DNA of 63,987 bases, filler included, from an uncultured Methanosarcinales archaeon (GCA_964397315.1; 4 parts of 4 records of this genome joined end to end with filler, not necessarily neighbours in it), one strand, 5' to 3'; shown: positions 25,940-60,580, counted from the whole stretch's first letter. The notes: generated by a model not told the origin, from the sequence alone. Made by a program: numbers and translations.

Positions 25940-26155
25940 TCCTGGTACTTCCCACCCTTACTGCAGAACCAGACAGCGGGCTTACTGCTTCTGCAACAGC
26001 ACAACTTTCCGCTTCTGCCTCCAATAAGCCCGCCCCTTAATTTGCTTGAAGCGCTCTGTGGAGTTGGTGCGATTAGCATATGTGAGGGGGATGTGGGCTG
26101 GATTTGTCCATCTGTAACTGTGATAAGGGCGGTGGTTAAGTCTGGATTAATCAAA
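25940..26155 (-). repeat. ~210-nt dispersed structured repeat, copy A
   Basis: Homologous to 60121-60328 and 60357-60580; internal stem GCGGGCTTA/TAAGCCCGC. Confidence 0.75.
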
Positions 26156-26331
26156 ACACTTAGAAGATGCTCAATTTCGTGGAATTTCGCTGCGCTTAAT
26201 CCCGCTTACACTTGAACAGAGTAATGCCGTTCTGGTGGTTAAGTCTGGATTAACCAAAATACTTAGAGGAGAGTTAATTCGTAGTACTTAGATGCTACAT
26301 AAAAACCTTGCTTCTTAACCTGAGAATTCCC

Positions 26332-26604
26332 TTAAAATACCTTGGCAGCCTTTTTCTCAAAGTCTGAAACCTGCTTCTTGACCCTCTTCACAGCGTCTGA
26401 GAGCGCGTCTCTAGGATCTTTTCCTGTTGTCTCAACAATGAGCTGCGGAACTCCTACAGAAGGGTGCTTTACACTATATGCTGCTGCCTTTACCTTGTCA
26501 TCACTCCACAATTCTTTCCTCAGAATGTTGCACAGTGTTGAATCCTCTCCCTTGACCTCAACCACGAGCCTGTTCTTTGTGTCTTCAAGAATGTTAAGTT
26601 CCAT
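26332..26604 (-). CDS. rpoL: RNA polymerase subunit L (Rpo11)
   Basis: GE..TL.N.L..EL, V..A.Y...HP. Confidence 0.93.
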   Translation of the reverse strand: MELNILEDTKNRLVVEVKGEDSTLCNILRKELWSDDKVKAAAYSVKHPSVGVPQLIVETTGKDPRDALSDAVKRVKKQVSDFEKKAAKVF

Positions 26605-26656
26605 TTGGCCACCTGTAGCGCAGGGATAAAGCATTCATTTATAAATGTTGTTGTAT

Positions 26657-27298
26657 TCAGGTCATGTCAATCCTCTTCTGAGTATTCTCCATTCTCCAGC
26701 AGCCCGCCTTTATCCTGTGTATTCTTCTCCTGTGGAACAGGTGGGAGGCCTTTATGGGCAGGTCATACTCCCAATAATGTGTGGCCTTGAAACCATTATC
26801 CCCTGCAATCTTCTCTATGAAGTCCTTTGAAGTTGCCTTGTGCAGGGAATAAACAACATCAGCTGTCTGGAATGCCTTTAAGAGGAATTCCCTGTCAGCG
26901 TGCTTTGTCTTTGTGCCGAAGGGAGGGTTTTGTATCACAGTGTCAGCCCTCTCGTTGAAGTCATTCACGTCCTGGTGCAGGAATACAGGCTCTCCCATCT
27001 CAGCGAATCTCGCTAGGTTGCTCTTTGCTGTTTCAAGCACGTTCTCGTCAGAGTCAACAAAAAACACCTTTTTTGCCCCGAGTATAAGCGCGCCTATGCC
27101 CAGCAGGCCTGTTCCGCAGCCTAGGTCAGCCACCTTCCTGCCCTCAATGTCATCAAGGAAGTAGGCATTCCAGAGTATTTCAGCCCCTATCTCAGAATCC
27201 ACAGGATACTGCTCTGTTGACACGTCAGGCTCGTCAAAAACATCAAGCTTTGAGAGCTCAACTGCAAGCCGTGCCTTTGAATTAACAAGCGAGGGCAT
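26657..27298 (-). CDS. METTL5-like N6-adenine RNA methyltransferase
   Basis: EQY, DLGCGTG, QNPPFG, YSLH. Confidence 0.88.
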   Translation of the reverse strand: MPSLVNSKARLAVELSKLDVFDEPDVSTEQYPVDSEIGAEILWNAYFLDDIEGRKVADLGCGTGLLGIGALILGAKKVFFVDSDENVLETAKSNLARFAEMGEPVFLHQDVNDFNERADTVIQNPPFGTKTKHADREFLLKAFQTADVVYSLHKATSKDFIEKIAGDNGFKATHYWEYDLPIKASHLFHRRRIHRIKAGCWRMENTQKRIDMT

Positions 27299-27451
27299 GG
27301 TTGAGGATATGCTCCATAAGTATTTAAAACTTGTTATAGCAGGGAGTGTATGTTATCCTGCTGTCATTACTCCCTCTTATGTAACAAACTCCAAGACGAC
27401 AGCTTATGTGTGGATGGGATGAATATCAAGAATTCTTTTAATAATATTAAA

Positions 27452-29389
27452 TCACTGGTCTGCGGCAGCTACTCGCACAGGAGGCTCAGGCACATTAATC
27501 CCTTCAGGATGGTCATTTGAATAAAAAACCCATCTGTCACCCTCCTTTACATATATGCCCATCTTGTATCTTTGCTCAATGTTATTCTGCTGGGTTTGCA
27601 GGATGTTGTTTCCAAACTCAGAAGGGTTATCTATCTCAGAAGGCCAGTTTGTAAGCACATCCTCCCAAACATCCCCATCCTCTGCAGGTGCTGTGGAATC
27701 ATAACCTACAACAAGCTTTAGGTTCGGGAATCTCTCATTAAGTTCGTACAAGACATTTTCACCTTCACTTTCCTCAGGATTCCTGACAGAGTTGCAACTG
27801 CTGGTCATTACGACTTCAACATTATCTGAGCTCTCAATCTCAGATATGTGCATCTCTCCATTCACACCCCATATGCTGTCATCCCCCTCATAGTGATGGC
27901 CTGTGAGCATAAGCACTTCAGTATCTTCCAGATTTACGTTATCAATAAACTTTGCATTAGTGCCCACAAAGTCAATATTGCCATTGGCTCTTGCTCCTTT
28001 AAGAGAAGCGTCCTGGCCATCTTCATAATTGGCGGCAATATGGGTAACTCTCACACCTCCCGGATTCTGGGAAGGAGATACAGTCATAAGATGCTCACAT
28101 TCTCCGGCAGCGAGCTGTGCACTTGTGCAGCTTTCAATATTATCACCCTCCTTTGACACGAACACAATCTCGCCTTCTGAGTTATAATATCCTGCTATAA
28201 AATCTGCATGTATCTCTGATGGATTGCCTTTGCAATACACTCCATCCGAATCCATTGTTATTAGGCCCCCTCTTGGAGGATTGCCTGAAAGCCCGTCATC
28301 ATACACCACATGACTGTTATCATTTATGGGGTTTATGTTTATCATATCCACCCTGCCTTGCTCACTGGTAATCTTTATGTGGCTGTTCTCCGCTGCATCT
28401 ACCTTGAGTTGCATTATCTCATCATCCCCATATAAGTTCTCATGGAAGTGATAGTTGAATCTTATGCAGCTTGTGCCTTCAATGCAATTTCCCTCCCCAG
28501 CCGCATTTACCAGGTACAGGGGCTTGTCAGCCTCAACAGTGAAAGTTTCACCCTCAATGCCCATATGGGTATAACTGCCTTCGTACACCATTATGTTATT
28601 ATCAAAAATTCCTGCCTGGCCGCTGAATCTGCCTACAATTCCCCTTATGCTCTCTGCTGCGTTGCCTTCAGCGCCTGTCACAACACTGCCAGGAGGTCTG
28701 TTTCCTTCAACAATCACATCGGTTCCTGACACATAGGTCATACCATTCATGGAAGTTAGAGTGATATCATTGTCAGAGTAGAACTCATGATCACCCACTC
28801 TGACAGTGCTGCCTAGGATGATAATGTCTGTCCTCTCATGGCTTGCTGCAGAGGCGTCCACTTCCCCTCCATCTATTGTGATAAATCCTTGCTGGTCTCT
28901 TGTCACAGAAGCTCCCGAAACTCTAGGCCCCCCGCTTAGGGTGACGCTGCCATCAGGCCATACTTTTGCCTCAACATCAACAAAAGCATAGGCATCAATA
29001 GTTGTTGATCTGTCTCCTGCAGTGATTATTTTGCTGCCGTCATAACTTTTGATAGATCCTCCCCCATCTGTGAGGCCATGTTTCCTGAACCAGATCTCCT
29101 TTATTTCAGGGTTGTCATTTATGAGTGATGTATCCTCAGCTGCCATATTATCTAGTCTTTCAAATACATCCTCATCGTCGGCAAGCAGTTCAGGATTCTG
29201 TCTTACGACTTCCTTCATATTATTGTCATTAATTACAGATAAATCAGATATATCCCCTCTTTTGATAGCGCCTGCAATGTCTTCTGCTTCCATGCGATTC
29301 ACATAATCTGGATCCTCATAATCAGGCTCTTCTGCGTAAGCGCAGGCCACACTCATAAGGAGGACTAGTAAAAGCAGGCAAAACCTCAT
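27452..29389 (-). CDS. Secreted acidic protein with possible C-terminal His-Cys (clan CD-like) peptidase domain
   Basis: Signal peptide; beta-rich middle; LMLTGHH and VMTSSCNSV motifs. Confidence 0.65.
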   Translation of the reverse strand: MRFCLLLLVLLMSVACAYAEEPDYEDPDYVNRMEAEDIAGAIKRGDISDLSVINDNNMKEVVRQNPELLADDEDVFERLDNMAAEDTSLINDNPEIKEIWFRKHGLTDGGGSIKSYDGSKIITAGDRSTTIDAYAFVDVEAKVWPDGSVTLSGGPRVSGASVTRDQQGFITIDGGEVDASAASHERTDIIILGSTVRVGDHEFYSDNDITLTSMNGMTYVSGTDVIVEGNRPPGSVVTGAEGNAAESIRGIVGRFSGQAGIFDNNIMVYEGSYTHMGIEGETFTVEADKPLYLVNAAGEGNCIEGTSCIRFNYHFHENLYGDDEIMQLKVDAAENSHIKITSEQGRVDMININPINDNSHVVYDDGLSGNPPRGGLITMDSDGVYCKGNPSEIHADFIAGYYNSEGEIVFVSKEGDNIESCTSAQLAAGECEHLMTVSPSQNPGGVRVTHIAANYEDGQDASLKGARANGNIDFVGTNAKFIDNVNLEDTEVLMLTGHHYEGDDSIWGVNGEMHISEIESSDNVEVVMTSSCNSVRNPEESEGENVLYELNERFPNLKLVVGYDSTAPAEDGDVWEDVLTNWPSEIDNPSEFGNNILQTQQNNIEQRYKMGIYVKEGDRWVFYSNDHPEGINVPEPPVRVAAADQ

Positions 29390-30150
29390 CCTGCATCACC
29401 CCACTCATAGCCAATTACAAAGGAGAATACAAGGGGCTCTGGAAGCGATTGATCTTCAAAAACAAGATTAAAGAGCTGATTTGGCTCGGCAAAATCCACA
29501 ATCTCATATGAGAATCCCTCTTCAGCTGCCAGCTCTAAAAGAAAGCTCAGAGGCATTTTGTTGCTCTCCTCTGCCTGTTTTTCTGCTATTGATCCTGCTG
29601 TCTCAAGCACGCTTCTGAGATCAAATTCTACAATCTCAAGGAAATCCTCTATTCTTGTGCTTGATTCTCCCCTGATAATCTCAACAGGGTATTCCATATC
29701 AAATATTACGCTCTCCTCAGCGATTCTTACTCCTGGTTTTATATCCCTCTCCTTTATGGTGTAACCCTTGCGTTTGAATTCTTCAAAATTTTTTATGCAT
29801 TTTGGGAGCTCTGCCTTAACATACGCTGAGAGCTCCTGCTCTACAGTGTGTATGCTTGGATGATTGGAGTGCCCAAAAATATAATAAAAAGGGATTTTCC
29901 TGTTGAGATAATTTTTGTAAGGCTCAGGAACAGAATAATAGCCTCCCTGGCTGCTGATTACATATATGCTGTCAACAGATGTTTTCTCAAAGCACTCCTC
30001 TACAAATATCCTTACAGGACTGCTCTCCAGAGCGCCGCTGCTGTTAGGCTTGTAAGTTTCTTTTACTGAAAGCATATAAACCAGCAATCCGATCATTGCA
30101 AGCAACAGTACCCCCATTATTATGAAAGCAGTTATTTGTCCTTTTTTCAT
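29386..30150 (-). CDS. Class III signal peptide (pilin-like) protein
   Basis: MKKG|QITAFII prepilin-like cleavage motif followed by a TM; domain related to the N-terminus of 56079-59996. Confidence 0.75.
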   Translation of the reverse strand: MKKGQITAFIIMGVLLLAMIGLLVYMLSVKETYKPNSSGALESSPVRIFVEECFEKTSVDSIYVISSQGGYYSVPEPYKNYLNRKIPFYYIFGHSNHPSIHTVEQELSAYVKAELPKCIKNFEEFKRKGYTIKERDIKPGVRIAEESVIFDMEYPVEIIRGESSTRIEDFLEIVEFDLRSVLETAGSIAEKQAEESNKMPLSFLLELAAEEGFSYEIVDFAEPNQLFNLVFEDQSLPEPLVFSFVIGYEWGDAG

Positions 30151-30194
30151 AATAAAAGAAAAAGAAACATACTATTTAAATATTGCTAAAATCC

Positions 30195-30761
30195 TCAGAA
30201 ATAAGCCCCAAGGACCTTGTTCTCCATCTGCCTTATTACAGATGGGTCAATCCTGACAATGTTCTCCCTTACCTGCCTTGCCTTGAAGTAGGGGTTCAGT
30301 TTGAAATAAAGCTTTCCCTCCTTTATCTCTCTTCTGAGCTTCACTCCCTTGTCAAGCATGGAGCTTATGATGTTCCTGCAGTGCTCACTGCTGAAATGCG
30401 TCCTCCCCATTATCTCTTTAAATGAGAGGAATCCCTCCTCATGCATATAAAGCACCAGAAACACCCTCTGCTCCTCAGGCTCCAGGCTTATGCTGTTCCT
30501 CTCATTTATAAGCTCCTTTACCATTGCAGAGACATGGTCCATGCGCTCATTGAGCTTCTCAATCTTCCTGTTAAGCTCTGCCAGGGACTCATGCTGGCTC
30601 TGGATCTCTTCTGTATTCTCATTGATGCTGTCAAGATGGTCCTCAAACTCTTCCTTGACAGTCTTGAAAGAATTCCTTATCCTGGTATCCATCTCTGAAA
30701 TCTCTTTGAAAATCTCTTTTCTCAGACTCTGCACTCCTACCTCTTTTGCCTTCAATGCCAA
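30195..30761 (-). CDS. Coiled-coil + winged-helix hypothetical protein
   Basis: Coiled-coil N-terminus, L..EEQRVFLVLY HTH-like C-terminus; start uncertain (TTG after GGGGTG). Confidence 0.6.
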   Translation of the reverse strand: MALKAKEVGVQSLRKEIFKEISEMDTRIRNSFKTVKEEFEDHLDSINENTEEIQSQHESLAELNRKIEKLNERMDHVSAMVKELINERNSISLEPEEQRVFLVLYMHEEGFLSFKEIMGRTHFSSEHCRNIISSMLDKGVKLRREIKEGKLYFKLNPYFKARQVRENIVRIDPSVIRQMENKVLGAYF

Positions 30762-30905
30762 ACTTACACCCCCATAAAATCCAGAATAATGTGGGTGGTT
30801 GAGGATGCTATTTAAAGATTTTGGTAGTGAAATGATTAGGTTTCCACTTGTACTTTCTGTTATAATTCCAAAAAACATAAAAAGACACTCTCCCCTCATT
30901 GCCTC

Positions 30906-31850
30906 ATGGCAAAAGAGGGTGGAAAAAGGGGCGGGGGGCATGAGTGCATAATCATAGGAGCTGGAATGGCAGGGCTCACAGCAGCCATGTACGCCTCAAG
31001 AAAAGAGATGGGCTTTCTGATCATATCCGAGGATTTCGGCGGCCAGCTCAATGTCTCAGGAGAGGTGGTCAACTATCCAGGCATAGTCAGGACCACAGGG
31101 GCTGAGTTCTCTGAGAAGATGCTTGAGCAAGTGAAGCTCAACAATATTGACATAAAGCAGGAAAAGGTTACAGGCGTTGAGGAGGCAGGAAAAAGCGGCT
31201 TTCTGGTCAGAACAAACAAGGGAGAGTATAAGGCGAGGAGCCTTGTGGTATGCACAGGAGCCAGGGCAAGAAAGCTTGATGTTCCTGGAGAGAAGGAATT
31301 TGCCAACAAGGGAGTCACCTACTGCTCTGTGTGCGACGGCCCCCTGTTCAAGGGAAAGAAGGTGGCTGTGGTTGGAGGAGGCAATTCCGGATTTGAGGCA
31401 GCAGACTTCATGCTCAACATAGCAGAAAGGATCTACATCCTTGACGCTGCAGAAGAGCCAATAGCCCATGAATACCTGCAGAAGAGGATAAAAGGGCATG
31501 ATAAGGTTGAGTACATAAACAAGGCCAAGGTAAAGGAGATAACAGGGGAGGAGTTTGTAAAAGGCCTGAAATATGAGAGAGATGGCAGGGAGCGCGAGCT
31601 TGATGTTGAGGGTGTTATCATAGAGATAGGGAGAGTTCCCAATACAGCGCTGTTTAAAGGCCTTGTGGAGCTTGACGAGCACGGCCACATCAGTATAGAC
31701 TGCTCTGCCCGTACGTCAAAAGAAGGCATATTTGCTGCCGGAGACTGCGCCTCAGGAGAGGAGTACCAGTACTGCATAGCAGCCGGCCAGGGATGCATGG
31801 CCCTGCTCAAGGCTGCAAGGTACCTGGCAAGGAAGGAGTCTGGAGAGTGA
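30906..31850 (+). CDS. trxB: Thioredoxin reductase (FAD/NADPH disulfide reductase)
   Basis: GAG.AG, GVTYCSVCDG, GGGNS, FAAGD. Confidence 0.93.
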   Translation: MAKEGGKRGGGHECIIIGAGMAGLTAAMYASRKEMGFLIISEDFGGQLNVSGEVVNYPGIVRTTGAEFSEKMLEQVKLNNIDIKQEKVTGVEEAGKSGFLVRTNKGEYKARSLVVCTGARARKLDVPGEKEFANKGVTYCSVCDGPLFKGKKVAVVGGGNSGFEAADFMLNIAERIYILDAAEEPIAHEYLQKRIKGHDKVEYINKAKVKEITGEEFVKGLKYERDGRERELDVEGVIIEIGRVPNTALFKGLVELDEHGHISIDCSARTSKEGIFAAGDCASGEEYQYCIAAGQGCMALLKAARYLARKESGE

Positions 31851-32026
31851 TACTTGTGATACTGATTGCTGTCATTATTGCTGTGCTTGCTGTGCTGCTG
31901 GGCTTGGCAGGGCTGTTGGCTGCAGGGAAGTCCGGGAAGGCCTCAAGGGCGCTGCTAATAACAGCAGGGGTGCTGCTTGTGGTGAGCGCGCTGCATTTCG
32001 TGTTCTTTATGTTCTACTTCAGATAA
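31847..32026 (+). CDS. Small two-TM membrane protein
   Basis: GTG start overlapping the trxB stop; two hydrophobic segments. Confidence 0.55.
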   Translation: MILVILIAVIIAVLAVLLGLAGLLAAGKSGKASRALLITAGVLLVVSALHFVFFMFYFR

Positions 32027-32099
32027 TGTGCAGACGTCCTTCATGGCTGGTTATGCCATGCAAAACCTTTAAAAAGGGAGTGTTTATCTTTTGCGCTAA

Positions 32100-32216
32100 G
32101 CCGGTGTAGCTTAGTGGTTAAAGCGCCACGCTCATAAAGTCCATGAGCGATGAGGCTTCGGCCTGTGATTATGGCGTGCTACGTGGAGATCGGGGGTTCA
32201 AGTCCCCTCACCGGCA
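32100..32216 (+). tRNA. tRNA-Met(CAT), elongator type, with 44-nt intron at 37/38 (32137-32180)
   Basis: GCCGGTG/CACCGGC acceptor stem, CCACG/CGTGG anticodon stem, GTTCAAGTC T-loop. Confidence 0.88.
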
Positions 32217-32357
32217 GTTTTTATTCAATTGAGGGGGGTGGGGTGGTCGCGGGGCTAAACGAGCAAAGTGAGTTTATGCCCCGCTTGGCGTTGCATGCCA
32301 GCTGGGCGTAACCAGCTGCGGCAGGGTTCAAGTCCCCTCACCGGCAGTTTTCTTAAA

Positions 32358-33011
32358 ATGAAAAGAATAACCACAAAAGACGGCTCAGTGACTTTCCACA
32401 ATCCTGCTTATGAAGAGGCTTATCATTCTCTCACAGGAGCAAGGGAAGAGGCTGTAAAGAAGTATGCAGAGCCGTGCAGGATAGCAGAGCTGTCCAGGGA
32501 GAAGGGAGGTATTAATGTGCTTGATGTCTGCTTTGGCTTGGGATACAACTCTGCTGCTGCGGTTGACGCTGCTCTTGCGGCAAACCCCTCCTGCAGGATA
32601 AGGATAACCGGACTGGAGAATGACCAGGGAATACTTGACGAGACAGTGAATATTGACGCGGACTTCAAAAGCTACAGCATAATGAAAGAGGCTGCAGCAA
32701 AACACAGGACAAGGGGCAATGTTGAGATTAACATCCTCTTGGGCGATGCAAGGGAAAAGATAAGGGAGATTGATGAGAAAGAAAGTTTTGATGCTGTCTT
32801 TCTTGACCCCTTCTCTCCGAAAAAATGCCCTGAGCTGTGGAGTGAGAATTTCTTCGCTGACATACGCAGGCTGATGAGAGAAGGCGCGATAATGGCAACA
32901 TATTCCTGCGCAAAAAGCGTGAGGGAGAGCATGAGGAAAGCGGGCTTTGAAGTTAGGGACGGCCCTGTTGTTGGAAGATGGGCGCCAGGTACTATTGCAA
33001 TAAATGGATAA
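32358..33011 (+). CDS. MnmC/MnmD-like SAM-dependent tRNA methyltransferase
   Basis: T.DGS.T, E.YHS..GA.EEA, DVCFGLGYN, LDPFSP..CPELW. Confidence 0.85.
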   Translation: MKRITTKDGSVTFHNPAYEEAYHSLTGAREEAVKKYAEPCRIAELSREKGGINVLDVCFGLGYNSAAAVDAALAANPSCRIRITGLENDQGILDETVNIDADFKSYSIMKEAAAKHRTRGNVEINILLGDAREKIREIDEKESFDAVFLDPFSPKKCPELWSENFFADIRRLMREGAIMATYSCAKSVRESMRKAGFEVRDGPVVGRWAPGTIAING

Positions 33012-33020
33012 AAAGAAGAA

Positions 33021-33228
33021 CGCCAGCGCCCGGAGATTCAGCCAAAGACTTTCTTTCCCTGGCATTTGAACCGGGATATGCCTAAGCAAACCCGCTCTCG
33101 AGGCGGGCGCAATTTCCTGTGCTTAGCTCGGGGCGGGTCACGCGGAAACGGAGTTCCTTCCCATGGTGGGGAGGCCGTTTGCGTTGCGATCGTAGCGAAC
33201 AAAGCAAACCAGGTTATGCGACGCTGGC
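33021..33228 (-). tRNA. tRNA-Ser(CGA) with two non-canonical introns (D-loop 20/21, 33114-33207; T-loop 59/60, 33035-33064)
   Basis: GCCAGCG/CGCTGGC acceptor stem, CCCGC-CTCGAGA-GCGGG anticodon arm, variable arm; both introns form 3-4-3 BHB motifs. Confidence 0.88.
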
Positions 33229-33288
33229 ATTATAAACCTGCACAATAACTGTCTTTTCTGCCTGACTTAAAAATTTTTCCAGAAAAAG

Positions 33289-34467: not shown

Positions 34468-34562
34468 CCACCCCTGACAGTTCAGAGGAGCCAAGGATAT
34501 ATAAATATTACGGTTGTTTTAGCACTTTGGAGTAGAAATAGAACACTGGCCAGAGAATCTTC

Positions 34563-34925: not shown

Positions 34926-35018
34926 TAAAGGCTCTAATAAGGGATTCTGTTTAAATTTTTATCGCCTCTAGCCAGGTGCACCGCAAACAATATAAACCCC
35001 CTGACTGACATCAGGGGT

Positions 35019-36429: not shown

Positions 36430-36463
36430 CAAAGAGGCAGTTCAAGAAAAGAGGCAGTTCAAG

Positions 36464-39073: not shown

Positions 39074-39242
39074 NNNNNNNNNNNNNNNNNNNNNNNNNNN
39101 NNNNNNNNNNNNNNNNNNNNNNNNNNNNNNNNNNNNNNNNNNNNNNNNNNNNNNNNNNNNNNNNNNNNNNNNNCCAAGGGGATTCGAACCCCTACCGACC
39201 GGGCCGAAACCGGTAGCACTATCCTGGTTATGCTATGGGGCC
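39069..39242 (-). tRNA. tRNA-Arg(TCG); 3' acceptor strand interrupted by a 100-N scaffold gap (39074-39173)
   Basis: GGCCCCA..., ACCGG-TTTCGGC-CCGGT anticodon arm, GGTTCGAATCC; GACC|CCAAGGGG joins seamlessly across the gap. Confidence 0.85.
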
Positions 39243-40884: not shown

Positions 40885-40984
40885 NNNNNNNNNNNNNNNN
40901 NNNNNNNNNNNNNNNNNNNNNNNNNNNNTTAATTAATTAANNNNNNNNNNNNNNNNNNNNNNNNNNNNNNNNNNNNNNNNNNNN
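40885..40984. other. Assembly junction (N + TTAATTAATTAA linker)
   Basis: N run with the linker at 40929-40940. Confidence 0.97.
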
Positions 40985-49396: not shown

Positions 49397-49455
49397 CAAG
49401 GGTTAACACGCCTCTTATGCAGCAGTCCTGAGAGACCAGGACCATAACACACAGC

Positions 49456-51405: not shown

Positions 51406-51529
51406 GAGAAAACTACAATGCAAGACTGGAGCTGACATACAAAAGGCCTGGCAAAGATACTCGGCAGGGAAGAGACAACAAAGGGAATCAGGAAAAAATA
51501 TAAAAAGAGAAGAGCATGGCAGGATAAGA

Positions 51530-52099: not shown

Positions 52100-52190
52100 T
52101 AGGCTAAAGGTTTCAAAAAGCTAAGCTTTTTGGAACACCAAAAATTGAAGATTTTTGATTCCCACGGCTTTAAGCAGCCGCTTTTGGCAG

Positions 52191-52260
52191 GCGGATTTCT
52201 GGAACTTTTAAAAGCCTTCATCTCCGCACCAAAGTGCGGAGCTTCCGGCTTATTAAAAGT
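52191..52260. repeat. 70-bp REP-like palindromic repeat, copy 1
   Basis: 68/70 identical to 56005-56074; CTCCGCAC-NAAA-GTGCGGAG hairpin. Confidence 0.8.
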
Positions 52261-52291
52261 GACTGCCGCCTTCCCCCTATGATAGAGCCTA

Positions 52292-54265
52292 CTAAAAGAG
52301 GTGCCTGAAGAAAAGAAGTATCCTCTGGATAAAAGAGACATCCACAAGGGAAATCTCAATCTTTTCAGAATCAGAATATTTCCTGCCCCTTGCATCCTCA
52401 TAGGAGAGGTTCATGTGTATTGGGTTTTTTCCCTCCTGCAATCCGCTTCCCTTAAGCTCCAGCTCGTATTCCTTCCCCTCCTCAAGCATGCCATAATCGT
52501 ATTCCCTTTCAAGCCCTGCACCATAAACCCCCACTAGGGCATTATGGGCTGGAGCTTCAGAGGCCTTGTCCAGGCTGAACCTGACACTAAACTCATCCCC
52601 ATACCCGACCTCTGCCGGAAACTCAACATCACCTATGCTGAACTCAGGAGATGGAATGCCCTCAAAGGCTATCTCCCTGCTCTTTGAAACCCTCTCATTA
52701 CTGATGTAAAGAGAGAGCTCATTCCTTCCCTTCTCTACATTCTCTATTGTGAATGTGAAATTCTTCTGCTGAGTTATGCCGAGATGAGAGGCAGCGCACC
52801 TGCCGGCAAGGCATATGCTAAGATTCCTGAAGAATATATTGCCCACATTTCTTATGCTGCATTCTATGGAAGGGGACTCGTAAGTGTAATACCTGTCTGA
52901 ATAATTAGTGCAGGACACCTCAAGGTTGCCAGCGTAGGCTTTCTCATGCCTTTTCCTTGATGCAGATGCTGACTTCCGAGCCTCCTCAAGCGAGATCATG
53001 CTCCCCTCCCCCATTGAGCTGAATGAGCCCCCTGAGGTTGCATTGTCAAGCGTGAAAACCTCATAGGGAAATGTGTATATGTAATCCCTGTCAAGGCCCC
53101 CCTGAACCTTTACGATCCAGCTTGCCTCCTTCACCTCACCTGGCCTGAGAAGGACATGCTTCTTTTCCGCGCCAAGAATGTCAAGCCTGCTGGTCCTGGA
53201 TATCCTAATGTCCTTGGAAACATAATAATCCTTAAGGTTGGTTATCCTGGCTTTTATCACATTATAGGAGCTGAAGCCAGTCTCATCCTCCATAACATCT
53301 GATTCTATTGAAACCTCATGGCCTTTCTCATCCCCTATCTCAAGCACACCTATCTGCGTCTCAAGATCATTAAGATCAAGGGATACACCCCCCTCTGCCT
53401 TCCACTGGTAGGTTGAGGTTATCTTCTCAGCGTCACTTGATATTGAAGTCACAATGTGAGTGGGGTCCACCCAGCCATACTCGCCGTATGTCACGTCATA
53501 AGGCACCCAGCCGTAACCAGGAAAATAGACTTCAGCCCAGCCATGAGGCCCCCAGTTGTCCGCTATCTGGGGGGAATTAGTGTATGATATTCCAGCCACG
53601 AACCTCGCAGGTATGCCCAGGGATCTCAACATTGATATGAAAAGAGAGGTTATCTCATCACAAACGCCTTCCCTGTTCTCAAGCACCCAGCTTGACTTCT
53701 GGGAAGCCTCAGCAGTGATGGTGGAGAAATTATAAGATATATTTGTGTTCACCCACACTGCAATGCTGTCCACAACATCCATAAGGTCATCCTTTCCTGA
53801 GGCTATATCAGAGGCTGTGTTTATTATGTTCTCATCTATGTCTATTATCTCAGCGGGCAGAGTGTATTTTCTTGCCTCATCAGGAATGTTTTCCAGGGGG
53901 AATCTTATTTTCCCTGACACCCTCACTGGATCATTCTCCACCTTCACGATGGAATCCATGTCTATGAAAAGCCTTGACTGGCTGGGCTTGTCCCACCTGA
54001 AGACTGCTGTCTCACCAATGCTTTCTGGCTCAGGGGAGAAATCAGTCTTTCTGATGGCCTGCCCTGCTGTTTCCTTGGGAAAAAAGGATATGTTGGCTGT
54101 TATGAAGTCAATCTTTGGAGAGGGGCTTAAGGAGACCACCTCCAGCTCGGTTGACAGCCTAACATCAAGAAGCATATGCCCGCTGTTGTAGAATCTGGAT
54201 TCCTCAATGCCGTGGCAGACAGGCAGTATAAGAAGCATGAGTATGAGGAGGATTGCTTTTTTCAT
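52292..54265 (-). CDS. Secreted transglutaminase-like protein
   Basis: Signal peptide from MKKAIL; GVCDE, HGWAEVY, W.PYD.T Cys-His-Asp triad. Confidence 0.88.
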   Translation of the reverse strand: MKKAILLILMLLILPVCHGIEESRFYNSGHMLLDVRLSTELEVVSLSPSPKIDFITANISFFPKETAGQAIRKTDFSPEPESIGETAVFRWDKPSQSRLFIDMDSIVKVENDPVRVSGKIRFPLENIPDEARKYTLPAEIIDIDENIINTASDIASGKDDLMDVVDSIAVWVNTNISYNFSTITAEASQKSSWVLENREGVCDEITSLFISMLRSLGIPARFVAGISYTNSPQIADNWGPHGWAEVYFPGYGWVPYDVTYGEYGWVDPTHIVTSISSDAEKITSTYQWKAEGGVSLDLNDLETQIGVLEIGDEKGHEVSIESDVMEDETGFSSYNVIKARITNLKDYYVSKDIRISRTSRLDILGAEKKHVLLRPGEVKEASWIVKVQGGLDRDYIYTFPYEVFTLDNATSGGSFSSMGEGSMISLEEARKSASASRKRHEKAYAGNLEVSCTNYSDRYYTYESPSIECSIRNVGNIFFRNLSICLAGRCAASHLGITQQKNFTFTIENVEKGRNELSLYISNERVSKSREIAFEGIPSPEFSIGDVEFPAEVGYGDEFSVRFSLDKASEAPAHNALVGVYGAGLEREYDYGMLEEGKEYELELKGSGLQEGKNPIHMNLSYEDARGRKYSDSEKIEISLVDVSFIQRILLFFRHLF

Positions 54266-54289
54266 CTTACCACTTTTTGAATGGAAAAA

Positions 54290-54414
54290 CGCCGCGGCTG
54301 GGACTTTCAGGCGCAGGCCCCGCCTAACGCTCTTTGAACCCAGATATCCCGAAGGAAACCAGATTTCTGCGCATGATAGCAATCTGGCGCAGTACCAGGT
54401 TGTGCCACCGCGGC
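54290..54414 (-). tRNA. tRNA-Ser(GCT) with two introns (37/38, 54365-54376; T-loop 59/60, 54304-54332)
   Basis: GCCGCGG/CCGCGGC acceptor stem, CCAGA/TCTGG anticodon stem, variable arm TCC-TTCG-GGA, BHB central helices TTGC/GCAG and TTCA/TGAA. Confidence 0.88.
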
Positions 54415-54638
54415 AATAAATTGCTTTGCTCTGAAGCCGCTTAAGCATTACCAGCAGCTATTCGGGCCATTCCGAGCAAAGCGAGGATATGGCCCTTGAT
54501 GGCCGGGTCAAGGAAGAAGACCCTTGAGCTGGTTGTGCCACCGCGGCAATAAGGCTTCTGCTTGCAACCCTATTTTTATAGTTTTCCCTTAAAAAAACCA
54601 AAAAGATTTATAAATGGGTTGCTGTTTGGCCATGGTAT

Positions 54639-54729
54639 AGCGAGGTGGGGCAGTCAGGAGTGCCCGACGGGCTCATAATCCTCTTGTTGGGAGACCCGTA
54701 GGTCGGTGGTTCAAATCCACCCCTCGCTA
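54639..54729 (+). tRNA. Initiator tRNA-Met(CAT) with 16-nt intron (54678-54693)
   Basis: A1:T72 pair, GGG/CCC anticodon stem, BHB CTCA/TGGG. Confidence 0.92.
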
Positions 54730-54751
54730 TGCTAATGCTCTCAGATTTTTT

Positions 54752-54840
54752 CGTGGGACTAAAGCTTTAGCTTTATGTCCCACCGGGTTCGCTTCCGAGG
54801 GTAGTGGTGACGCTCTTCTAAATCCACCCCTCGCTATGCT
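54752..54840 (+). repeat. tRNA-associated hairpin mini-element followed by a 21-bp duplication of the tRNA-iMet 3' end
   Basis: GTGGGAC...GTCCCAC-TTCGCTTCCGAGGGTAGTGGTGACGCTC shared with 38983-39044 (reverse complement); 54820-54840 = 54713-54733. Confidence 0.8.
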
Positions 54841-54873
54841 CACCCTCTAGTGTTTTAAAAGACTCTTCCAGAA

Positions 54874-55179
54874 TCAGCTTTTCTTGAATCTTTTCCTTAT
54901 CTGGTTCTCCAGCTTGTTATAGACCTTGTGAAGTGTTCTTGCAATGTCCCAGTCCTCATACTCAGCCTCAAAAATCCTGGTGGGGGCGGAAACCTTTGCC
55001 TTTATTAGATATCTCTTCTGCCTGCCCTCTGAGTCAAATGTTTTCACGTGAAGCTCTACAGAGGTTATATTCTGGAGCTCCCTCTGAATCTTTCCGTAAT
55101 ACTCAGAGGACAGCTTGTCCACCACCCGCTTTTCTTCAGGGCTTAACTCATTAACTCCCTTGTATTGTATCTGCTCCAT
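54874..55179 (-). CDS. Standalone HPF/RaiA-like ribosome hibernation domain protein
   Basis: Fold pattern LHVK...G...RY.I...V, WD....L..V..KLE.QI. Confidence 0.6.
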   Translation of the reverse strand: MEQIQYKGVNELSPEEKRVVDKLSSEYYGKIQRELQNITSVELHVKTFDSEGRQKRYLIKAKVSAPTRIFEAEYEDWDIARTLHKVYNKLENQIRKRFKKS

Positions 55180-55301
55180 AAGTGTTGTTCTCTCATGTGA
55201 GTTTAAATATTTTTTGATAATACACAGAGGATAACAGGATTTGAACAGGGCAGCACAATGCAGCGCTTTTTTCAATAACTTTAAATAAGAAACCAGCAGA
55301 C

Positions 55302-55970
55302 ATGAGAAGAATGGCTTTGATAGCTGGAATTGAGGAAGCGGGAAGGGGCCCTGTGATAGGCCCGATGGTCATGGCAGGGGTGCTTATAGACAGCGAGCAT
55401 GAGGAAACTCTTTCATTGAATGGTGTTAAGGATTCAAAGAAGCTCAGCCCAGCGCAGCGCGAGAGGGTTTTTGAATACCTGCAGGAAGCGGCGAAGAGCA
55501 TAAAGATAATAATAATAGAGCCTCATGTGATTGATTTCTATGTTGAGTCAGAGAATAAGAACCTGAACTGGCTTGAGGCTGACAAGACAGTGGAGATAAT
55601 AGACAGCCTGAAGCCTGATGCTGCATTCATTGACTGCCCGAGCAACAACATCAACGCGTATTCCAACTACCTTAGGTCAAGAATATCCCACAAGGCAGAG
55701 CTGCACTGCTCTCACAAGGCTGACGAGCGATATCCTGTTGTCGGCGCCGCCTCAATAATAGCCAAGGTCACAAGGGACAGGGAGATAAAAAGAATAAAAA
55801 AGAGTGTGGGAGATGACTTTGGATCAGGATATCCTTCTGACCCTGCGACAAGAAGATTCCTTGAGGAGAACTGGAGCAGGTTTCCCGAAATCTTCAGGCA
55901 CAGCTGGAGCTCGTACAAGGCTTTCTCAGAAAAGAAGTCCCAGAGCAGGCTGGGGGACTTTAAGAAGTAA
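55302..55970 (+). CDS. rnhB: Ribonuclease HII
   Basis: GIEEAGRGPV.GP, DSKKL, KAD, AASI.AKV.RD, GSGYPSD. Confidence 0.93.
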   Translation: MRRMALIAGIEEAGRGPVIGPMVMAGVLIDSEHEETLSLNGVKDSKKLSPAQRERVFEYLQEAAKSIKIIIIEPHVIDFYVESENKNLNWLEADKTVEIIDSLKPDAAFIDCPSNNINAYSNYLRSRISHKAELHCSHKADERYPVVGAASIIAKVTRDREIKRIKKSVGDDFGSGYPSDPATRRFLEENWSRFPEIFRHSWSSYKAFSEKKSQSRLGDFKK

Positions 55971-56004
55971 AAAAAATCCGCAGCTTAAGCAGAGTTTTTG
56001 AAAA

Positions 56005-56074
56005 GCGGATTTTTGGAACTTTTAAAAGCCTTCATCTCCGCACTAAAGTGCGGAGCTTCCGGCTTATTAAAAGT
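56005..56074. repeat. 70-bp REP-like palindromic repeat, copy 2
   Basis: Matches 52191-52260. Confidence 0.8.
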
Positions 56075-56078
56075 AACA

Positions 56079-59000
56079 TCACTTGAGGAACCTGAACTCC
56101 GCTTTCCCGGTTGCTTCACTGCCGTGCTTGTCAGTGCACTTGACATAATAGGTGTATTCCTTTCCCTCATCAAGCTCTGGCAGGTCTGCCTTAAAGCTCC
56201 TGTACCCTGTCTTGCTCATCGTAAGGTATGAGTAGGGGTTGTCATTATAACCGCACTGCACCTCATTCTTCACTATGTCCTCGGTTATCTTCAGGGACAG
56301 GACCGCGTCCTCCGAGCTTATGACTCCTGAAGGGGAGATGTTAATTATCTTCAGCTCTTCTGCCTTGTTCAGAACATATTCAAAGCTTTTCTTGTTTATG
56401 TTTCTTGCGCTGGTGTTTTCCTCTCTGGCTTTTATGATATAATGGTGGGTTCTTCCGGTTATGTTCCTCTCAGAGCTGTTGCTGCATGATATGCTTATGT
56501 TTGTCTCGCGGCCTGCAAGCTCAACATGCTTTCCGCACAGAGTATATTCATCTCCTGAAGCGCACTGCAGGGGGGTGTTGTTCCGGGAGCTGTTGATGTT
56601 CATGCTGCACTCGGCATCCGCTCTTGTGTAAATGCGTATGTCAACCCCGCTCATGTTCAGCTCAACAGTGTCCGCTCCTGAAAGGGCTTCTTCAAAGGTG
56701 ATATTCACGCTCCTGTTACCAGCCTTAGCCCTTTCAGGATTTCCATCCACAAGCTTGTTTTCCTCCCCCCTTATTATTCTGAGAGTGTAATTGCCTATTC
56801 TCCTGTCAAACTGGGTTGGCGGCTTCAGCAGCCCTGTACACTTGTAAATGCCCAGCTCTTTCCTGTCTGAAGGCTTGCAGGCTCCGAGCCTCTGCATCTT
56901 CTCAAAGCTGATGTCATCAAGAGAGTGCCTGAATTCCTTCCTGTCATCAGTGTATATGCTGAGCTCAACTTCAGATGTGTTTATGTCAAGCCTGATGATG
57001 TCAAGCATTCCCTCCTGAATTCCCACAGAGGAGCTGTTGATGATAACATAATCTGACAGGCTGGCGTTGGTCTCGTTTGCTTCGCTGTTAATTTCGCTTT
57101 CTGGTTTTAAGGATGCTGATGAGGTATTTGACTCCATTATCTCAAGAGAGAACTCCTCTGTCTGGGGCGGGTGGTCCGCGCACCTTATGAATATCCTGTT
57201 CTTTGAGTAAGGCACTTCAAACTCTCCCCTGCACTCATAAGTTCCTCCTGCGGCAGGGCTGAGCTGGTAGCTGCCTGCAGGGCATGATAAGGAGTTGTTC
57301 ATGTGCTCATAATCAGTGTCAAGATAGCTGAATCTGCACTCAGCAGGCTCGTCAAGGTACAGCCTTGATTCTATGCGCTCAAGAGAGGGGCTTATCCTGC
57401 TGTTGTTGGCAGGCACTGTCTGTATGAATCTCGGAGGCTCGCTGTCCTCATAACCATAATCCACAGTAAACTTGAGAAATATCTGGTTCTTGTTCCTGTT
57501 TCCTGCCCTGTCAGTGCAGTCAAAGAAAAGATAGTAGCCGCCCTTGTCAAACTGCTTCAGCAGGGCCCTTACCACAAGGTCAACATTATAGGCTGCCCGG
57601 TCAAGCATCTCGGATATGCTGTTCACCTTGGGCATGAGCTGTTCTGTGATGTCAGCTCCGGTGAGCTTGTTATATGCTTCAATGCCTGGGCCTAGGTTTT
57701 TCATGAGAGAGTCCATTGCCTGCCTGGCATTGTAGAACAATTCAAGAACCCCTCCTGATGAGCTCAGGTTTACTGCATCCATTATTTTCTCGGGAACCTC
57801 AAGCTTGGGAGGTATTCTTATTGTCATGTTGTGCTTCTCCCTGAACACAGAGTCACCCAGCATTACAGTCTGGAGGCTGTAATCCTCAATCCTGGGGCTT
57901 AAGCTGACAGTGCATCTTACCTCCTCGCTTGCTTTCACCCCAAAAGTAAATGGCTTGTGGGGCTTTACAGGCTCAATTATCCTGTAGCCATGGTAAGAGC
58001 CAAGAGTTGAGGACTCCAGGCTGTACTCAGGAGGTATTGCATCCTTGTCAATCTCAACAACCGGGCGGGAGAAATCAACTATTGACGCTCTCCTGCAGAC
58101 AGGAACTCCTTCCTTCATCTCAAATATGCATTCCGAGCTTATGCTCCTGCATCTGTACTCAGAGCAGGGCCTTGAGGGATCCTCAGAGCACTTGCTGCAG
58201 TCGCCCTTCTCAGGAGGAACCCAGAGCCTGCAGATTGAGAAATCCCTGATTTTAGGAATCCTGTGGCTTAAGAAAGGGTTTGAGTAGGAGCTTGGATTAA
58301 GCCCTGAGAGCTGGCTGAAGAAGTTTGACAGCGAGCTTATGAAGAGGGGCATTGTTCCTGCGCTGGATTTCGGAGAGCTCAGAACATCACTCATTGCTTT
58401 CTGGAATCCAAGCGTGAGTTTCCAGCCTGTGCCGTTAGGCAGAGGATTCCTGTTGAGGCCCCCAGGAGGATATGCGCTTTCATTCACTTTCTTCAGCATG
58501 TCTGTCTCATAAAATCCACCTTCTGAGAGCTGGTCATTGATGTTCCTGTAATTGCCGCAGTCGCCCTGTGAATAACAGTATTCTGCTGCGCTGTCAAGCC
58601 AGGGCTGGGGGCAGCTAAGCCCGTTGCATTCCTTCTCCTGATTTCCTCTCAGGCATATGTCAGCCCCCTCATTCTCCCAGAACCTCAGGCCAGGAGGAAC
58701 CTCAGGAATGCATTTGCCCTCTGTCTCAAGCGAGGAGTCCCAGTAACAATCCCTGTGTCTCTCGTCCTCGCAGCAGGTTTTTGTGTCGCATTCAAAGCAT
58801 GTATGCCACCTGTTCTCCCTGCAGACTGCTTCTGATGTTCTGTTCTCTGTCCTTTCTGTGCAAAGCTCTTCCCTGTAATCCCTGCACCCCTCTGTGTAGA
58901 TTGTGCCGTTTATGCAGCTGAGCTTGTAATGCCTTGAGCCCACATAATCCATGCCCTCTCCTGTTATGGTATCATAAGAGCACCATGACTCGCCGTGCTC

Positions 59001-59996
59001 CCTTCCTGCCTCAGGACAGTCAAGGCACCCTTCTCCGGAGCAGGGGTCTTTCGGCTCGTAAGAGTAAGAGCAGCTGCACTCAATGTTAGGGTTGTATTCT
59101 CCCTGGAGCTCTATGCACCTGAGAGGGTCTGTGTTCTTGAAGCACATTCCGCTCTCCCTGTCCATGCAGCACCCGTAATAGTGCTTTTTTTCGCCCACAA
59201 AGCTTCCTGCAGTGGGGAATGACTGCCGGGCAAACTGAAACTTGTAGCCGTTCTTCTCAAGAGTATAGACTGTGTCAGGATAAGGCCTGCGCTTTTGTAT
59301 GAGAACATCCGCGCCGTTCTCAGCCATCCACTTGTCCTTGTTGAAGCTGCCATGGGTTATCTCGCTGTTCACTATGCTCTCTGCAAGGTAGTAAAGCCTT
59401 CCCAGGGGATAATCCATGGTTGAGGAGAATTCCTTGACGCTTGTCGTGCTCTCTCCCTGCACGAATCTCACAGGATAATTGAGATTAACTACAACGTCGT
59501 CCTTTGCTATCTCCACATCAACCTCCATGTTTCCTGTCTTTATCTCGTCAGCGAACCTGCTGAAAGGGGACATGTCAATGCACCCTTCCAGCCTTGTTTT
59601 TATCTCCCTGGAAAGCTCGTATTCCATGGCTGATCTTGTCAGCATTGAGTTAACACAGGCATAATCAATCTCAAAGCCTTCTGTGTAGCACAGGTAGCTT
59701 ACCCGCGTCCTGTTGTAGTACATTGAGCTGGACTCCATGGGATAGAGGGTTCCGCCGTGCATTCCAATGTCCAGCACAGGCTCTTCTGATTCCTGCGCAA
59801 TGCAGTTTCTCACGTATGAGCTGAAAGCAGATTCAATATCAGGCCGTCCAAGCTCGCCTTTCTTGAGCTCAAGGGGCTGTTTTGCTGAGATGTATATGAC
59901 ATAGGAGGTAGCTGAGAGAAGAAGCAGGACCACAATCCCTATGATTATAAAAGGAGTTATCTGTGCGCGGGTGCAGAACCTCTTTTTTAAAGCCAT
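56079..59996 (-). CDS. Large Cys-rich surface protein with class III signal peptide
   Basis: RA|QITPFII followed by a TM; Cys-rich modules; Ig-like C-terminal repeats (C.D..GN). Confidence 0.8.
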   Translation of the reverse strand: MALKKRFCTRAQITPFIIIGIVVLLLLSATSYVIYISAKQPLELKKGELGRPDIESAFSSYVRNCIAQESEEPVLDIGMHGGTLYPMESSSMYYNRTRVSYLCYTEGFEIDYACVNSMLTRSAMEYELSREIKTRLEGCIDMSPFSRFADEIKTGNMEVDVEIAKDDVVVNLNYPVRFVQGESTTSVKEFSSTMDYPLGRLYYLAESIVNSEITHGSFNKDKWMAENGADVLIQKRRPYPDTVYTLEKNGYKFQFARQSFPTAGSFVGEKKHYYGCCMDRESGMCFKNTDPLRCIELQGEYNPNIECSCSYSYEPKDPCSGEGCLDCPEAGREHGESWCSYDTITGEGMDYVGSRHYKLSCINGTIYTEGCRDYREELCTERTENRTSEAVCRENRWHTCFECDTKTCCEDERHRDCYWDSSLETEGKCIPEVPPGLRFWENEGADICLRGNQEKECNGLSCPQPWLDSAAEYCYSQGDCGNYRNINDQLSEGGFYETDMLKKVNESAYPPGGLNRNPLPNGTGWKLTLGFQKAMSDVLSSPKSSAGTMPLFISSLSNFFSQLSGLNPSSYSNPFLSHRIPKIRDFSICRLWVPPEKGDCSKCSEDPSRPCSEYRCRSISSECIFEMKEGVPVCRRASIVDFSRPVVEIDKDAIPPEYSLESSTLGSYHGYRIIEPVKPHKPFTFGVKASEEVRCTVSLSPRIEDYSLQTVMLGDSVFREKHNMTIRIPPKLEVPEKIMDAVNLSSSGGVLELFYNARQAMDSLMKNLGPGIEAYNKLTGADITEQLMPKVNSISEMLDRAAYNVDLVVRALLKQFDKGGYYLFFDCTDRAGNRNKNQIFLKFTVDYGYEDSEPPRFIQTVPANNSRISPSLERIESRLYLDEPAECRFSYLDTDYEHMNNSLSCPAGSYQLSPAAGGTYECRGEFEVPYSKNRIFIRCADHPPQTEEFSLEIMESNTSSASLKPESEINSEANETNASLSDYVIINSSSVGIQEGMLDIIRLDINTSEVELSIYTDDRKEFRHSLDDISFEKMQRLGACKPSDRKELGIYKCTGLLKPPTQFDRRIGNYTLRIIRGEENKLVDGNPERAKAGNRSVNITFEEALSGADTVELNMSGVDIRIYTRADAECSMNINSSRNNTPLQCASGDEYTLCGKHVELAGRETNISISCSNSSERNITGRTHHYIIKAREENTSARNINKKSFEYVLNKAEELKIINISPSGVISSEDAVLSLKITEDIVKNEVQCGYNDNPYSYLTMSKTGYRSFKADLPELDEGKEYTYYVKCTDKHGSEATGKAEFRFLK

Positions 59997-60120
59997 GGCA
60001 GTTATTTGTTAAAGAAGGTATATAAAAGTTGTGCTATAAAACAGGACAGAATCATCTCCATGCATTGCCACCGCCATGTTTAGATCAAGGCGCGATAGGG
60101 TTCATGTAAAACTGGTAATC

Positions 60121-60328
60121 TCTCCAGGATTTACCACCTCCCTCTTTAGAGTTACAATCGCTTCGCCCGCCTCCCACCCATATACACAACTTGAGAGCAC
60201 CAACCTAGCCAGAGCGCACCCCAGCATATTACTGGGCTGGCTTATTAGAGGCAGGAGCTGGGAGTTGTGCTTTTCCAGAAGGTGTAAGCCTGCTAAGTGG
60301 TTCTGCAGAAAGGGTGGGAAGTACTATG
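60121..60328 (+). repeat. ~210-nt dispersed structured repeat, copy B
   Basis: CCAGAGCGC...GGCTTATTAGAGGCAGGAGCTGGGAGTTGTGC...GTAAGCC...AAGGGTGGGAAGTAC. Confidence 0.75.
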
Positions 60329-60356
60329 ATTAAAAGCCCCCCCACCCCCTAAATAT

Positions 60357-60580
60357 TTTGATTAATCCAGACCTGACCTCCGCCCCCAGCCGCATTTACA
60401 TATGGATAAAGCCCTCCCGCCACCCCCCCACATATGCTAATTGCACAAACACCAACCAGAGCGCACCTGAGCAAATTACTGGGCAGGGCTTATTAGAGGC
60501 AGGAGCTGGGAGTTGTGCAGACTTAGAAGAAAGTAACCTGCTGTTTGGTTGTGGAATAAGGGAGGGAATCACCATGAGGG
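60357..60580 (+). repeat. ~210-nt dispersed structured repeat, copy C
   Basis: TTTTGATTAATCCAGAC start identical to copy A; same core as copy B. Confidence 0.75.

Follow-up and report, generated by a model that had tools for sequence, protein, structure and literature searches.

The DNA analysed here, referred to as the window, is a stretch of 63,987 nucleotides (filler included) from an uncultured archaeon (GCA_964397315.1). Its region between positions 25940 and 60580 is bounded by homologous blocks that a preliminary description had presented as a three-copy repeat with conserved, covarying stems, either a structured RNA or an aged miniature inverted-repeat transposable element (MITE). On balance, we favor the interpretation that the blocks belong to a lineage-specific family of composite small interspersed repeats, non-coding repeated DNA of the BOX or BIME kind. 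A locus of the family is built, on a single strand, of 0–2 extra C-rich heads, a core of ~240 nt, and 1–5 G-rich tails. The evidence for this interpretation comes from the number and modular anatomy of the copies, the pattern of their conservation, their position between genes, and their narrow distribution among related genomes.

The genome to which the window belongs (G000) is a metagenome-assembled genome (MAG) of 61 contigs and 1,471,575 bp, with a G+C content of 45.7% and a completeness of 93%, and was placed as a small DPANN archaeal genome of the Woesearchaeota type. Its sequence is present in three DNA runs, all from one microbial-mat study, and in no listed RNA run. The element also occurs in a second genome, that of a related Woesearchaeote in the same taxonomic family (G007, 87% complete). 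Three rounds of nhmmer searches seeded with the three blocks gave 98, 105, and 103 matches in G000 at E ≤ 1e-3, which replaces the description of a three-copy repeat with that of a high-copy family. The matches are distributed over 40 of the 61 contigs, as counted from the listing, and cluster into 74 loci of at least 100 nt, none of which contains matches on both strands. Near-full-length copies (model positions ≤12 to ≥225; 201–281 nt) account for 54 of the 103 matches and have a mean pairwise identity of 71.7%, with a range of 56.7–92.6%. The DNA at these loci that is repeated elsewhere, as determined by BLAST against the rest of the genome, amounts to 32,480 bp, or 2.2% of 1.47 Mb. Repeat loci thus cover 32.5 kb next to 162 kb of other spacer, about one sixth of the spacer DNA. 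The assembly ends within 300 nt of a match at 27 of its 122 contig ends.

Profiles of the end modules matched 57 heads and 151 tails, nearly all of them beside a core and on the same strand, and only two small orphans were found. The tails are further copies of the last ~36 nt of the core and are located downstream of nearly every core. The tail motif is composed of a G-rich GGGNGGG segment, about ten bases, CCWGGA, and an A-rich end, and the tails are spaced at a median of 46 nt (range 36–70, n=56). The head motif is C-rich and contains TCCWG, about seven bases, and then CCNCCNCCC; in part, it is reverse-complementary to the tail motif. Among the 5′ flanks, a few conserved classes can be distinguished, two of which, judged from their sequences, look like internally deleted copies of the element. 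Seven head-to-tail pairs have 10–16 nt between the matches, and in every pair the first member stops at model position 228. Many copies are truncated at the 5′ end or split by another element. The family behaves as modular repeated DNA, which is probably selfish, and unlike a folded RNA gene.

The three copies in the window show this anatomy. The ~240-nt core of copy A is located at 25926–26162 on the minus strand (C22:5003–5239) and spans model positions 1–238 (nhmmer E=1.3e-69). Copy B, at 60108–60333 on the plus strand (C23:19124–19349; nhmmer E=1.2e-56), is the first member of a head-to-tail pair and ends at model position 228. Copy C, at 60350–60591 on the plus strand (C23:19366–19607), is the second member, begins 16 nt past copy B, and is 96% identical to C9:15515–15736. 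The profile matches place the homologous blocks within ~15 nt of the limits given in the preliminary description, and their homology appears independently in the repeat listing (I4, 107 nt, 81%; D6, 91 nt, 75%; I8, I10, and I12). A gapped 24-base motif of the family matched two of the three window copies, compared with 0.00 expected from 100 shuffles. Downstream of copy A, repeated DNA runs for 142 nt past the core through degenerate tail-like units at 25784–25925 (−), within a BLAST repeat extent of C22:4861–5373. The units contain the G-rich motif followed by CCWGGA, as judged by eye; the tail profile scored only the first of them. Tandem Repeats Finder reported nothing at both window loci because the tail units are too diverged. 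The upstream module of copy A, at 26163–26296 (−), contains a conserved flank of ~70 nt of a class common to several other loci (I12). A second partial head at 26234–26269 (C22:5311–5346) is a fourth, partial copy of the 5′ end of the element. Repeated DNA continues downstream of copy C at 60592–60654 (+), within a repeat extent of C23:19117–19670, and the contig ends ~150 nt further on. The pair of copies B and C is homologous throughout to C9:15103–15760, and the homology breaks off inside the first tail motif.

Conservation is concentrated in a part of the element. In the 238 alignment columns, 69 are conserved at 95% or more, and 55 at less than 60%. Gamma-distributed rates with an alpha of 0.74 improve the fit over equal rates by 603 log-likelihood units. 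The diversity of individual columns is correlated between G000 and G007 (rho 0.55 over 220 columns), and 58 columns are conserved in both genomes, compared with 31.2 expected, with the same base in all 58. Linkage among variable columns declines from an r2 of 0.167 at distances of 1–3 nt until, beyond 100 nt, it equals the null value of 0.02. Therefore, the copies do not represent a few clonal subfamilies. They are either mosaics produced by the exchange of short tracts, or have been independently saturated with changes at unconstrained sites. Whichever applies, selection maintains the sequence at about a quarter of the positions, and it acts either in each copy, as in a host function, or on multiplying lineages, as on cis-acting sites. 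The decay of linkage was used instead of the four-gamete figure of 84%, since the latter is inflated by recurrent changes. The distribution of singletons in G000 (39 in the 87 columns conserved in G007, compared with 42 in 133 others) is biased by saturation, and is ambiguous because recurrent changes at this divergence hide private mutations.

Strong conservation of primary sequence, together with the intergenic position of the loci and their G+C content of 45.0%, compared with 40.4% in other spacers, could also be expected of multi-copy non-coding RNA genes, whose function would come from a conserved fold or from conserved single-stranded sequence. We consider this explanation improbable. 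The complementary segments reported in the preliminary description as an outer stem and an inner hairpin are real, since 79.3% of the cells of its 25 pairs can pair, compared with 37–52% when the partner is slid by 1–3 columns; the covariation ascribed to them was not confirmed. When the 3′ letters of the three helices were shuffled among 37 copies (33 from G000 and 4 from G007), 498 of 500 shuffles paired as well as or better than the original. The covariation score of the pairs is 0.095, compared with a shuffled mean of 0.104, and 475 of 500 shuffles scored at least as high. Only two cells are changed on both sides of a pair. Several pairs fail in the majority of copies; for example, 157–205 and 160–202 are broken in 27 and 20 of the 37 copies, respectively. 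RNAalifold, applied to the 262 columns of the same alignment, gave −8.27 kcal/mol with a covariation term of −0.04 and no compensatory change in any of 14 pairs. Scanning every pair of columns, for either strand, yielded only helices of 4–5 bp with at most two covarying pairs. The folding energies of 16 of the 54 copies, each compared with 25 dinucleotide shuffles, have mean z values of −0.54 for the sense and −0.46 for the antisense strand. The complementarity of the ends of the blocks, which had been noted as partial, is weak and limited to a short C-rich segment and its G-rich complement.

Signals of transcription are similarly sparse. Promoter words of G000 are of the TTTATAT/TTAAATA type and are located ~33 nt ahead of start codons. 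A promoter-type 7-mer precedes 15 of the 54 copies, and a run of five T follows within 150 nt in six of 54. The invariant block GGGCTTAT does not belong to these promoter words. It was considered as a candidate promoter for its likeness to two promoter-like repeats of the window, and was rejected, as GGCTTAT is not enriched upstream of genes (21 occurrences compared with 17.9 expected). The 5′ truncation of many copies and their interruption by another element also argue against RNA genes. At the gathering score, Rfam 15 finds only tRNAs in the window, and it gives no match at E ≤ 1 in five loci containing at least nine copies. Therefore, the repeat is not a known RNA family, in agreement with the preliminary description, which had not recognised it as SRP, RNase P, or rRNA. 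That description had itself named a lack of covariation support as evidence against a structured RNA; such support is lacking, and neither the folding energies nor the promoter and terminator signals favor one. The repeat is thus not a known RNA, and a conserved fold has no support.

We also weighed the blocks as a decayed protein-coding gene family, or as an artefact of assembly or binning, and find either hardly credible. Some copies have no antisense stop codons over their full length (84 codons), and spurious open reading frames (ORFs) within the elements cluster as "paralogues". However, the open frames are confined to the element, reach at most ~166 codons, and vary from copy to copy, and the coding explanation was rejected. 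Single-base indels between copies are frequent in the alignments, and no long ORF spans any copy; the indels noted in the preliminary description are real. Against an artefact, the copies lie within long contigs between ordinary archaeal genes, such as those for rpoL and L35Ae, and the same contigs are present in the three DNA runs.

The loci are located exclusively between genes. None of the 74 lies inside any of 1,429 ORF-based gene proxies, which cover 88% of G000. The 52 loci with two neighbors are distributed over the four classes of neighbor orientation as 15, 14, 13, and 10, near the expectation from the spacer types of the genome, and the element is therefore not tied to the 5′ or 3′ ends of genes. 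The convergent genes for rpoL and L35Ae flank copy A, and copies B and C are upstream of, and divergent from, the gene for a 1,305-residue Cys-rich protein. The strand of the element is unrelated to the local gene strand and to GC skew (Mann-Whitney p 0.87 and 0.86, respectively). Adjacent loci have the same orientation in 28 cases and different orientations in 13, which is reached by 80 of 5000 shuffles, and on the 155-kb contig C1 all nine loci point the same way. Genes have a G+C content of 46.4%, compared with 45.0% for the repeat loci. Large, Cys-rich, and probably secreted proteins adjoin elements at window 56079–59996 (−) and at L079:4299–5375, L079:5413–6615, and L081:1010–2812; in Pfam they match only the Cys-repeat families Stig1, Dicty_CTDC, and the MopE motif. 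A two-gene block of Cys-rich paralogs is found on contigs C16, C48, and C61, in each case adjoining closely related copies of the element, which indicates segmental duplication.

The family has a narrow distribution. BLAST searches over 40 relatives matched G007 alone. A covariance model using sequence only gave 90 matches in G000 and 18 in G007. It gave none in 15 other genomes of the taxonomic family, including four of the same genus (these 76–91% complete), and, when stricter filters were applied, none at E ≤ 1e-5 in 150 further genomes sampled across the order. The family motif, scanned over 185,579 species genomes (one genome each), was found in seven contigs of G007; the one other hit, of 38 nt in a bacterial MAG, is a chance match. 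No match came from motif scans of JGI metagenome contigs and IMG/VR viral contigs; the second motif used in these scans matched two of the three window copies in a control. The orthologous rpoL–L35Ae spacers of two congeners, G001 (~500 nt) and G003 (~370 nt), contain other sequence and lack the element. The spacer of G001 (L050:1753–2321) has a ~50-nt duplicate of the end of the L35Ae gene and several hairpins, and that of G003 (L049:1104–1531) a long inverted repeat with G/C-rich arms; these repeats are lineage-specific. In a tree of 64 copies, the ten from G007 form one clade (100/99) apart from the 54 of G000, and the set in each genome was therefore amplified separately. G007 likewise has tandem pairs and extra tails. 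In three genes compared, G007 is 76–83% identical to G000, and the "same-genus" genomes are 69–77% identical; G007 may thus be the nearest relative of G000.

From this pattern, we hypothesize that the family multiplied within G000 and, separately, within one related genome, and would have settled solely between genes in any orientation. Its copies may swap short stretches by recombination or gene conversion. The 60–70 nearly invariant positions would matter for their primary sequence rather than as RNA helices, and would most likely be DNA sites used by a protein that copies or recombines the element. The element most likely spreads as selfish DNA, and any use by the host would be secondary.

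Several observations weigh against this interpretation. The conservation of ~60 positions at ~80 loci in two genomes is stronger than junk DNA would need, and fits a host function too. The inverted repeat is weak and comprises five invariant C-G pairs besides variable ones: helix 1, with nine pairs, has 73.9% of its cells paired, three of its pairs never vary, and four are unpaired in at least 16 of the 37 copies. No target-site duplication, which the preliminary description had proposed as a check, was seen by eye next to the outermost head and tail motifs at the 31 loci where these could be placed; there, the flanks are still repeated and the true ends are therefore uncertain. No empty site was found, and the contigs of the three DNA runs break at every element. 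The runs were inspected over a 16.5-kb stretch with four loci, where the joints of their contigs are inter-copy chimeras and uninformative either way. The relatives are too diverged for alignment of spacers. Since G007 is, in the three genes compared, at least as close to G000 as the "same-genus" genomes are, the distribution can be explained by one origin in a small clade rather than by transfer.

The search for a mobilizing enzyme, also proposed earlier, gave no transposase linked to the element in G000. Searches of that genome, at its completeness of 93%, detected neither TnpB nor a reverse transcriptase nor an IS110 enzyme, and its assembly has no longer element in which the same ends enclose an ORF (head, ORF, and tail); as the genome is incomplete, an insertion sequence (IS) may be missing. 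Of the four tyrosine recombinases encoded by G000, the three large ones had no match in G007 (87% complete). The only multi-copy ORFs near elements, located beside three related copies, were examined as possible transposases and rejected, as they are paralogs of Cys-rich surface proteins. A single gene for an IS200-like Y1 (HUH) transposase of 136 residues is located at C20:6920–7330 (L051:1462–1872). It is flanked by unrelated hairpins with G/C stems and has no element nearby. The candidate name of an ISL3-like protein was read from the translation of an ORF just upstream of the Y1 gene.

If this lone Y1 transposase moved the element as a non-autonomous, single-stranded unit of the IS200/IS605 type, this would explain why inverted repeats and target duplications are absent, why insertions are in tandem on the same strand, and why there is a local strand bias. 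The nine co-oriented loci on C1 and the lack of visible target-site duplications fit such movement. A Y1_Tnp gene is present once in G000 and once in G007, and overall in five of 17 genomes of the taxonomic family, including both that bear the element and none of the four congeners. However, we find this mechanism very improbable. The core lacks subterminal hairpins and excess folding. The hairpins flanking the Y1 gene are a different repeat that has nothing in common with the element, and the downstream one recurs exactly at ~6 other places in G000. In neither G000 nor G007 does the Y1 gene have an element within ~1.5 kb, the co-occurrence involves only two genomes, too few to mean much, and the strand of the element follows neither gene strand nor GC skew.

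A different explanation of the strong sequence constraint is that the repeats are DNA sites used by the host. The heads, tails, and invariant core blocks would then form arrays of binding motifs for a chromosomal protein, for example, in nucleoid organization, segregation, or transcription boundaries, and would be kept by selection at each locus. We regard this as possible, although unlikely. It would account for the near-invariance of about a quarter of the columns in ~54 copies, with the same columns and bases conserved in the second genome, for the intergenic position independent of gene orientation, for the repetition of short motifs in arrays, and for the tendency of neighboring loci to share orientation (28 compared with 13). 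However, the element is absent from all 15 other members of the taxonomic family that were searched, including the four congeners, which makes an essential role in the chromosome unlikely, except for one of very recent origin. The number of modules and the extent of truncation vary greatly among loci, and the copies form separate clades in each genome. The columns conserved in G007 show no depletion of G000 singletons, although this comparison is the one biased by saturation.

The fixed junctions between units, the arrays on the same strand, and the ending of homology at the tail motif suggest that this motif is the joining point of the units. The loci could accordingly be pictured as cassette arrays bounded by a conserved G-rich site of ~18 nt (GGGNGGGAAG...CCWGGA), at which cassettes of ~245 nt (core) and ~46 nt (tail) would be inserted and reshuffled by a site-specific recombinase or a single-strand mechanism. 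We consider this picture rather improbable; if true, it would describe a kind of archaeal mobile DNA that lacks both inverted repeats and target duplications.

The main element also carries a nested one. A second repeat, a string of perfect hairpins, is inserted in at least seven copies of the main element, in all of them at model position ~66, between CC(C/G)CC and CTCC, and without target duplication. Inserts of 173–176 nt are located at C1:38501–38675, C2:70094–70266, C9:15168–15340, C25:16327–16499, and C8:40168–40340, and inserts of 113–114 nt at C3:110305–110417 and C33:5208–5321. The inserts are 97.9% identical on average, compared with 75.2% for the copies that surround them. They are so much more alike than their hosts that the insertions are therefore recent, independent, and site-specific. 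Insertion in this style is expected for elements of the IS200/IS605 type. The main element is the specific landing site of this second, younger element.

The preferred interpretation, a family of composite repeats, can be compared with known systems. The sections of Croucher et al. that treat composite small interspersed repeats describe BOX, with the structure boxA-(boxB)n-boxC, BIME, and NIME (PMC3049150). The BOX element of Streptococcus pneumoniae is nearly confined to one species and its nearest relative, which is interpreted there as a sign of parasitic DNA (PMC3049150). The archaeal family resembles BOX, as characterized in those sections, in having fixed end modules and a variable count of short tandem modules (head-core-(tail)n) and in occurring as many intergenic copies in one species and its nearest relative. 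It differs from BOX in that the latter, according to the same sections, has terminal inverted repeats like those of an IS (ISSpn2) and extensive secondary structure. The archaeal element has a weak inverted similarity, folds at the level of shuffled sequences, and no IS with similar ends was found; between a bacterial and an archaeal repeat, a relationship in sequence is not expected.

REP sequences are linked with RAYT. The BIME/REP repeats of enterobacteria and the NIME of Neisseria, which are named in PMC3049150, are likewise mosaics of regularly arranged short motifs with many intergenic copies. BIME are composed of palindromic units of ~35 nt in alternating orientation, whereas the archaeal loci keep to one strand (0 of 74 mixed) and have a non-palindromic core of 240 nt. 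The properties of a composite repeat found here are the regular pattern of sub-sequences with a variable tandem module, the dispersal between genes, and the confinement to a clade (two of 17 genomes of the taxonomic family). A longer conserved segment followed by short repeats on one strand also recalls the leader and array of a CRISPR. In the archaeal element, however, the tails have a period of ~46 nt with ~10–20 nt between motifs, these stretches are common to the loci, the loci number ~74, and the tails are diverged. A CRISPR array was rejected on the basis of the short, shared stretches between motifs and the divergence of the tails.

The reading as an aged MITE stands in the broad sense of a repeat element, although the family is not a textbook MITE. 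MITEs are characterized in PMC3049150 by AT-richness, by terminal inverted repeats, by a fold that is tightly base-paired, and by duplication of the target site. The family resembles MITEs in being small, non-coding, multi-copy, intergenic, and lineage-restricted. AT-richness, a tight fold, and an IS with matching ends in the same host (G000, 93% complete) were not found, and the family departs from most of the hallmarks. A census of prokaryotic MITEs counts "a Woesearchaea genome", at 105 MITEs per Mb, as one of the densest in archaea (PMC11602168), so that Woesearchaeota rich in repeats have been recorded before. The elements of such archaeal MITE families share with ours a small size, lack of coding capacity, multiple copies, and a mostly intergenic position; in our family, however, AT-richness and a tight fold are absent, the inverted repeat is weak, and no target-site duplication was seen. 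No description of this repeat family was found in the text of the open-access literature. The most fitting classification is that of a new composite interspersed repeat family in a Woesearchaeote; on present evidence, it is not a new kind of system.

The window itself is composite. BLAST of its four pieces against the genome identified contigs C21, C22, and C23 and part of C59, joined by linkers of the form N...TTAATTAATTAA...N at 20824–20923, 40885–40984, and 60808–60907, according to the repeat listing and contig mapping. Copy A is on C22, and copies B and C are near the end of C23. Therefore, 25940–60580 is not one physical stretch, and distances across the linkers or across an additional gap of 100 N within C22 (window 39074–39173) are not physical.

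The window also contains features apart from the element. Rfam finds tRNAs at 32100–32216 (+), 54639–54729 (+), and 39169–39242 (−), of which those of 117 and 91 nt contain introns, fitting an archaeon. ARAGORN in bacterial mode found solely a tRNA-Met at 54638–54730. Repeats D12, I9, and I18 adjoin the tRNAs. The 82-nt direct repeat D7, at 52182–52263 and 55996–56077, is 93% identical between its copies and contains a hairpin (CTCCGCAC...GTGCGGAG) ahead of a TATA-like GGCTTATTAAAAG. Comparable ends in AAAGGCTTATAAAA are present at 20984, 21476, and 23134 (D9), and these repeats may be repeated promoter regions. The region 7400–15700 contains numerous CT-rich, low-complexity direct repeats (D2–D4, D13, and D15–D20), which are probably the antisense of a Lys/Glu-rich coding sequence.

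DPANN archaea have small, streamlined genomes, and in this one a single non-coding family fills 2.2% of the DNA. As the assembly breaks near it at 27 of 122 contig ends, the family directly limits the quality of MAGs in this lineage. The finding is of moderate interest for the genome biology of DPANN archaea and for the assembly of MAGs. It also holds a caution for annotation: complementary segments in a few copies are insufficient for calling conserved, GC-richer blocks of spacer RNA genes. The family is a clean archaeal example of a composite repeat with a strong constraint on sequence, no constraint on structure, and a nested, site-specific second element. Together, these features could offer a way into the question of how repeats spread where transposases are very few.

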